In this document: positions 17,340-18,522 of the stretch, in pieces | Layout of the letters: every line of letters starts with the position of its first letter | Numbering within the stretch: position 1 is the stretch's first letter | Source: Escherichia coli O127:H6 str. E2348/69 | GTDB taxonomy: Bacteria; Pseudomonadota; Gammaproteobacteria; Enterobacterales; Enterobacteriaceae | DNA length: 64,000 nucleotides | Strand: one strand, 5' to 3' | Assembly: GCF_000026545.1 (NCBI RefSeq) | Contig: NC_011601.1 | Program-made: the position numbers and the translations under genes | Notes under the pieces: model-generated | Told to the model about the DNA's origin: nothing | Databases searched by the model: none | What the model saw: only the letters and a program-made list of their open reading frames with translations

Positions 17340-17384
17340 AGCGGCTATATTCCCCCACAGGTTGTTAGAAAAATGCGCTTTATT

Positions 17385-17490
17385 TATGTCGGATGCGACG
17401 CTGGCGCGTTTTATCCGACCTACAAAGTTATGATAATTCGATGAATTGTATGTTATTTGTAGGCCTGACAGTCGTAGCGCATCAGGCGAT
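17385..17490. repeat. REP (repetitive extragenic palindrome)-like elements
   Basis: gtcggatgcgacgctggcgcgttttatccgacctac and gtaggcctgacagtcgtagcgcatcaggc resemble the REP consensus. Confidence 0.55.
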
Positions 17491-17955
17491 TTTGCTATTT
17501 ACACAGTACTCCCTGCGTGAGATTCCAATTATCGCGTCCAGCATGGTGTATCAGTGAGCTGCTTAGTTATCAGCGATACAGTGCAGCAGTTTAAAGATGT
17601 ACTGGATTATGATCTATCAGTGGTTTACACAATAAATAATTTCAACATACGTTAACCTATTTTATTATTACATATCTAAAACATCACAAAAATATCACTT
17701 CACACACTATCAGAGAACATCATACCTTTTTAAAACGAGCATTTTCGATAGTTGTTAACGTTTTCTTTTGCGATATTATTATTGCCTTTTTTTGCACTCA
17801 AATATTACCAGATGGAAATAAAAGAGAAGTCAAAGGTAATTATATCAGGAAGATATGACGCATTATATTTACTGTATGTAGAAGAAAATCCATTCCTGTT
17901 CTAATTATCCAATTTAAAAATCTTAGCATAAAACAAATGATGAATAAGGAATGTT

Positions 17956-18129
17956 ATGTCAATTGACTTTACCCCAGGTGTAATAAATACATATAACGGT
18001 GATATTTATAACTGCACAACAAATACCGATAATGTTAAAACGCCAGACACACCGAAGTGGCCTTGTGATAACCGGGAAGAACAACACCCCATGAATGCCC
18101 CATTCTCTGGAGAATGGATACACCTCTGA
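17956..18129 (+). other. Short 57-codon ORF with SD in AT-rich gap; possibly part of a degraded gene (yhiS-type remnant?)
   Basis: aagga 5 nt upstream of ATG; flanking frames carry further short ORF fragments broken by stops. Confidence 0.2.
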
Positions 18130-18522
18130 ACAATTTGATTTAGCGCAACAACGCCAACAAATTAATGCGTGCCATACGAACACCACATATACAAATGCAG
18201 ACTACTCAAAGTTGAGGCTCAACTTGTAAGTCTTATTAATAACATTGAAACGATAAGCTCGACACCACTTCCGCAAAAGACACAATCAATACTTAATCAG
18301 ATAAATAACATTAGACACGAAAAGATTAAAAACCTCTGAATATAGATTATGGAACAATGGATACTCATGCCACGCCCAAAAATTAACTGAGCTCAACTAA
18401 ACAGAAGAGATATAAACATCAGACAGGTTTACGTTACTATCAGGCATATCGCCTCAGAATCAGATGAAAACTATAAAGAAATATCTATTATGGTTTTAAT
18501 ATTTGTTGATAAGGATAGTAAC

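Follow-up and report, generated by a model that had tools for sequence, protein, structure and literature searches.

The closest described counterparts of the locus considered here are the yhiS loci of Escherichia coli BL21(DE3) and K-12 MG1655, in both of which the genes lie in the order arsC-yhiS-slp-dctR. In BL21(DE3) the interval between arsC and slp is 2099 bp long and holds an intact yhiS of 1224 bp, which encodes a protein of 407 amino acids (WP_000020596.1). The K-12 gene (b3504) keeps all 1224 bp and is interrupted by IS5T near codon 249. This AT-rich gene borders the acid-fitness island, and a full-text literature search for functional studies of yhiS found none. Two reports bear on its regulation in K-12. 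The arsC/yhiS spacer and the insH11-slp region are among 78 "promoter islands", a class that is bound by H-NS, transcriptionally silent and tied to horizontally acquired genes (PMC3661553). Overexpression of YdeO leaves yhiS unaffected and induces slp-dctR, whose promoter has a YdeO-binding region (PMC4222967).

I examined the corresponding interval of E. coli O127:H6 E2348/69 within a stretch of 64,000 nucleotides, referred to below as the window. The gap between arsC and slp (17340-18522) is 1183 bp long and 100% identical to the E2348/69 sequence NZ_CP059840.2. Its left neighbor is arsC, encoding a glutaredoxin-dependent arsenate reductase (16914-17339, plus strand; identified from the list of open reading frames, the RefSeq annotation and alignment to K-12), and its right neighbor is slp, encoding an outer-membrane lipoprotein (18523-19089, plus strand; same list and RefSeq annotation). 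The first-pass annotation, made from the letters and the open reading frames, had described about 1 kb of roughly 35% GC after arsC, and the measured values agree: 35.2% over 17340-18522 and 34.2% over 17500-18500, as compared to 50.3% for the whole window, with the lowest values (28-30%) across 17600-18000. With a probability of about 0.93, the gap consists of non-functional debris, namely the stump of yhiS, together with ordinary intergenic elements that include a pair of REP sequences.

The identity of the stump is plain. A tblastn search with intact BL21 YhiS, proposed with the first-pass annotation, matches the gap over residues 1-127 with an e-value of 1e-48, the changes of frame being visible in the match. 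At the nucleotide level the identity to BL21 is 91% over 1009 aligned columns, and the stump is about 90.5% identical to K-12. Position between arsC and slp, strand and similarity to YhiS all mark it as the yhiS orthologue, in the form of a pseudogene, and it has in common with BL21(DE3) yhiS the orthologous position, the start codon (ATG at 17956) and the Shine-Dalgarno sequence (AAGGA, ending five nucleotides before the ATG). The suspicion of a decayed gene at the place of K-12 yhiS, in another state of decay, was therefore well founded: the first ~128 codons survive here, with four lesions relative to BL21. RefSeq already carries the region as a pseudogene (H4J01_RS01420, 17956-18333: [quoted passage not shown]), which disposes of one half of a further suggestion, that it might be an unannotated small gene.

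What remains of the coding sequence falls into three segments on the plus strand. The first (17956-18114; alignment to BL21 and tblastn) comprises codons 1-53 in the original frame and ends at an inserted T (position 18115), seen by alignment in E2348/69 and Nissle alone among the sequences compared. The second (18116-18210; alignments and tblastn) holds codons ~54-85 in the +1 frame, has lost three base pairs, or one codon, from a CAA run near 18146, and ends with a -1 deletion in the A-run at 18208-18210. Because that deletion restores the frame, the later pieces again read in the frame of 17956, as had been remarked of them earlier: the stretch 18169-18339 shares that frame, and it includes the third segment (18211-18339; open reading frame list, tblastn and comparison of junctions), codons ~86-128, which runs to a stop at 18337-18339 newly made at a deletion junction. 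Two frameshifts and the loss of codons ~129-407 break the frame of 407 codons that is open in intact alleles of the BL21 type, and so make the window copy a pseudogene. The same gene at the same locus is thus inactivated in K-12 and here, in different ways. K-12 has the full length and an IS. In the window the gene is free of IS sequence, is missing codons ~129-407 and bears +1, -3 and -1 indels in its remaining part.

The largest lesion, the absence of about 0.9 kb of yhiS, had gone unnoticed in the earlier reading of the sequence. Alignment to BL21 falls into two pieces: window positions 17340-18331 correspond to positions 1501-2507 of the BL21 locus at 91% identity, and 18343-18522 to positions 3420-3599 at 93% identity without a gap. 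The 912 bp missing between them comprise yhiS codons ~129-407 and some 67 bp of 3' flank. The junction, at 18332-18343, was placed by this two-piece alignment and by comparison of alleles. Since the 3' flank is variable, the right breakpoint is ambiguous, and an alternative alignment moves it to a TGAAT microhomology immediately 3' of the stop codon, at the cost of extra small deletions. Neither the BL21 alignment nor the allele comparison shows IS or foreign sequence at 18332-18343, RefSeq annotates no transposase in the gap, and the BL21 alignment upholds the earlier statement that the gap holds no IS.

Two possible origins of the present state were considered and set aside: a deletion mediated by an IS, as there is no IS remnant at the junction, and an allele disrupted by IS5 as in K-12, as alignment of the gap to BL21 reveals no insertion. 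The site of IS5T in K-12 (about codon 249) falls inside the segment deleted here.

The distribution of the junction was surveyed in 5426 complete E. coli genomes, 5418 of which match the locus at all. A query of 111 nt spanning the junction is found at full length, in one copy per genome, in 1053 of the 5426, including Nissle 1917, O25b:H4-ST131 and APEC O18, while the deleted 912-bp segment is present in 4363. The two sets add up to 5416 of those 5418, which indicates one old deletion passed down within a single lineage. The occurrence of the junction at one place only per genome also makes it unlikely that E2348/69 has a second, intact yhiS elsewhere. A query of 71 nt across both the +1 and -3 sites finds the exact allele of E2348/69 in 336 genomes, compared with the 1053 that carry the deletion, and UM146, ST95 and NC101 have this narrower allele; a further 114 genomes match at 95-99% identity, the listed full-length matches at 98.6% differing by a single mismatch. 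The named carrier strains, like E2348/69, belong to phylogroup B2. The shared junction is a clean marker of a lineage that makes up ~19% of complete E. coli genomes and includes Nissle 1917, ST131, ST95 and E2348/69.

Carriers of the same deletion differ in how much of the frame from the yhiS ATG is open. In HH45, with the deletion but neither frameshift, 128 codons are open. ST131 and FDN-4 have the deletion and the -1, and 91 codons are open. E2348/69 and Nissle, with the deletion, the -1, the +1 and the -3, have 57. The -1 is common to all the sampled strains but HH45, four in number; the inserted T at 18115 is absent from ST131, FDN-4, HH45 and all intact alleles.

These comparisons bear directly on the 57-codon open reading frame to which the first-pass annotation had drawn attention. 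The frame exists as described, from 17956 to 18129, with AAGGA at 17946-17950 and a stop at 18127-18129, and one might suppose it to be a functional gene for a small protein, either new or salvaged from the N-terminus of YhiS with the old Shine-Dalgarno sequence and start. Both of those signals are intact, and the N-terminal ~50 residues are fairly alike between alleles. It is, however, the inserted T at 18115 that brings up the stop at 18127-18129, so the final four residues, like the stop itself, derive from a frameshift limited to a sub-lineage. The comparison across strains that had been called for shows that the frame is not conserved: it is 57 codons in E2348/69 and Nissle, other carriers of this deletion have 91 (ST131 and FDN-4) or 128 (HH45), and the exact allele occurs in just 336 of the 1053 deletion carriers. 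Moreover, full-length YhiS, this segment included, matched no family, and residues 1-48 of an AlphaFold2 (AF2) model of intact YhiS have pLDDT values below 50. A small-protein gene is accordingly scarcely credible, and the variation among 57, 91 and 128 codons marks the open reading frame as a by-product of frameshifting and not a conserved small gene. With no conserved protein product, the remnant may be taken to drift neutrally, and the stump most likely has no function.

The nested lesions suggest an order of events. The 3' two-thirds of yhiS would have been lost in one deletion of ~0.9 kb that spared the 180 bp upstream of slp; the stump would then have gained the -1, and later, in the branch with E2348/69 and Nissle, the +1 and the -3. 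Deletion, then -1, then +1 and -3 is the simplest order that fits the alleles, though its first step depends mainly on one unusual strain, HH45, a singleton. The stump of HH45 shares 98.9% identity with the intact yhiS of ET846, a strain of another lineage, so that recombination may have repaired HH45. The frameshifts nevertheless offer a small worked example of the stepwise decay of a pseudogene. The importance of the case is otherwise small: a routine pseudogene, already flagged by RefSeq and typical of its lineage, of a gene already known as a pseudogene in K-12, with no sign of a new gene or a new mechanism.

The gene that was lost is of some interest in itself. In three intact alleles, 11-13% divergent from one another in DNA sequence, all 407 codons are open and dN/dS is 0.40-0.49 (dS 0.20-0.28), which argues that ancestral yhiS was a real coding gene under weak constraint. 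Its inactivation has been recurrent: by IS5 in K-12, by IS1 in NCCP12480 and CUWW10, and in many clusters of fragments. A further case is O157:H7, where the gene is truncated to 371 codons (locus positions 1122-2237), stops following codon 371 in the BL21 frame, and the form of 371 amino acids is found as well in clusters from other E. coli and from Shigella dysenteriae.

The gene evolves fast, and its divergence within the species is unusually high, both in dS (0.20-0.28) and in protein identity, which falls to 64%. The alleles also look mosaic, with blocks shared in different combinations.

YhiS is an uncharacterized orphan. Searches of Pfam, NCBIfam, PADLOC, PHROGs and PDB sequences gave nothing significant, and among the matches listed with a source name from a collection of 5.8 billion proteins, all come from Escherichia or Shigella, the alleles being 64-92% identical at the protein level. 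A profile built from nine YhiS alleles was searched against 1.84 billion cluster representatives. It recovered YhiS itself as the one cluster of full length, along with dozens of short pieces of pseudogenes, and no full-length relative outside that cluster among the representatives. The profile also matched long proteins, though solely through its positions ~204-277, and in each of these proteins several stretches are repeated. All six of the long matches that were checked are strong pentapeptide-repeat proteins by Pfam, and e-values against such proteins ran from 6.5e-9 to 1e-3. Alignment of the YhiS family to one of them by hhalign gave a probability of 91.7% (E = 7.6e-7) over residues 203-263, and in residues 208-257 of intact YhiS every fifth residue is F, L or M through ten units. 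The Pfam model PF00805 does not match intact YhiS at E ≤ 1, and an AF2 model from the nine-allele alignment has a mean pLDDT of 45.8, with values below 50 over residues 198-269, too low to confirm a fold. Judged from these sequence patterns, ancestral YhiS probably contained about 2.5 turns of a pentapeptide beta-helix. This weak signal is the one hint of the nature of the protein, and the stretch concerned (~204-263) lies wholly in the part deleted from the window.

The noncoding parts of the gap raise a different question, whether the DNA has been kept for its effect on its neighbors. Upstream of yhiS lies an AT-rich region (17551-17955, plus strand, delimited by its composition, 28-35% GC, and including the Shine-Dalgarno sequence at 17946-17950), and downstream lie the 180 bp before slp (18343-18522, plus strand, placed by alignment to BL21), which the K-12 literature suggests to be the slp-dctR promoter. 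By mapping of coordinates, the upstream spacer would correspond to one of the K-12 promoter islands, and the region may be silenced by H-NS. The AT-rich DNA might then have been retained as a regulatory element, a platform for nucleation of H-NS or a promoter island tuning slp-dctR, and the B2 deletion would have changed that regulation. The listing of both K-12 regions among the promoter islands bound by H-NS (PMC3661553) and the binding of YdeO at the K-12 slp promoter (PMC4222967) lend this some color, as does the retention of the 180 bp at 93% identity without a gap, a circumstance that would fit selection for an unbroken slp promoter and is no proof of it. Against it, the promoter-like sites in the gap number 8, at the level of composition-matched shuffles (5.4 ± 2.4 expected), the spacer is conserved no better than the decaying coding stump (both ~90% identical, the spacer to BL21 and K-12 alike), and neutrality explains the retention equally well. 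A regulatory role for the retained DNA is in consequence very unlikely. It is also improbable that the recurrent, independent losses of yhiS were selected rather than neutral; in one version of this reading, the deletion of H-NS-bound DNA immediately before slp-dctR would have rewired expression of the operon in B2 strains such as the EPEC strain E2348/69. A scan for terminators in the gap showed no enrichment over shuffles, and a scan of 16200-19400 against Rfam for small RNAs and RNA families found none above threshold within the gap, the one hit (AgrB) lying outside it.

Debris and ordinary intergenic elements remain the preferred reading of the gap. The REP elements among them stand directly after arsC. 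REP sequences are the usual extragenic palindromes at the 3' ends of E. coli genes. The REP-like palindromes reported earlier at 17385-17490 resolve into an inverted, BIME-like pair. The left REP (17388-17423, plus strand, GTCGGATGCG...TTATCCGACCTAC) is recognized by its imperfect palindrome (17385-17401 with 17406-17422) and by its match to a REP copy at 47998-48031, found by a search within the window (88% over 34 nt, E = 2.6e-5), which places it in a dispersed family of multiple copies; it also gives a sub-threshold match to naRNA4, an Rfam family derived from REP. The right REP (17459-17487, minus strand) was identified by direct reading of the sequence, its reverse complement being GCCTGATGCGCTACGACTGTCAGGCCTAC. 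It has no second copy in the window beyond 12-mers, and by the published consensus I take it to be a REP of the Z type. The tail of the left REP pairs with the right one as an inverted repeat (17414-17426 with 17456-17468). Both are extragenic imperfect palindromes of about 35 nt with a REP head and a CCTAC tail. Like the REP and BIME elements of E. coli generally, they form two palindromes of ~30-36 nt with the signature GxCGGATGCG...CCTAC, in inverted orientation, just 3' of a stop codon, though both are somewhat degenerate, reading GTCGGATG and CCGACCTAC where the canonical sequence has GCCGGATG and CCGGCCTAC.

Next to the right REP, on the minus strand, lies the relic of another gene: 22 codons (17485-17550, YTMLDAIIGISRREYCVNSKIA) followed by a stop at 17482-17484, recognized from translations and from the annotation of HH45. 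The relic is present in all the strains examined that have the arsC context, and its homologue in HH45 is better preserved, PGAP calling it an incomplete "transcriptional regulator". A database search for the parent gene gave only fragments of 37-47 amino acids and not the gene itself.

Other changes surround the gap. Compared with K-12, arsR and nearly all of arsB are absent from the window (16381-16913): positions 16853-17000 align to the last ~60 bp of K-12 arsB and the start of arsC, and positions 2491-4176 of the K-12 locus have no counterpart in the alignment. With both genes deleted, arsC is an orphan here, having neither repressor nor pump. In strain HH45, likewise, dinQ adjoins arsC.

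The window has a single copy of an AgrB-like antisense sRNA (16655-16739, plus strand; Rfam RF02891, 91.5 bits), whereas K-12 has an agrA/agrB pair opposite dinQ. The flanks of the single copy align to both the agrA and the agrB regions of K-12, which suggests that the duplicate collapsed into one.

On the other side of the gap, chuS, of the heme-uptake locus, directly follows dctR (from ~19829 onward; locus positions 3990-4183), in the place taken by yhiD in K-12 and BL21. It marks the known chu insertion within the acid-fitness island. The chu locus of HH45 is partly deleted, a chuY fragment, shuU and an ATPase gene being followed by yhiD.

The left flank of yhiS varies as well. ET846 and 500010 have an intact yhiS preceded by a "permease" gene instead of arsC (locus positions 1-539 in each). 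In many genomes the match to the gap begins only at query position ~301-313, so that the species has two or more arrangements to the left of yhiS.
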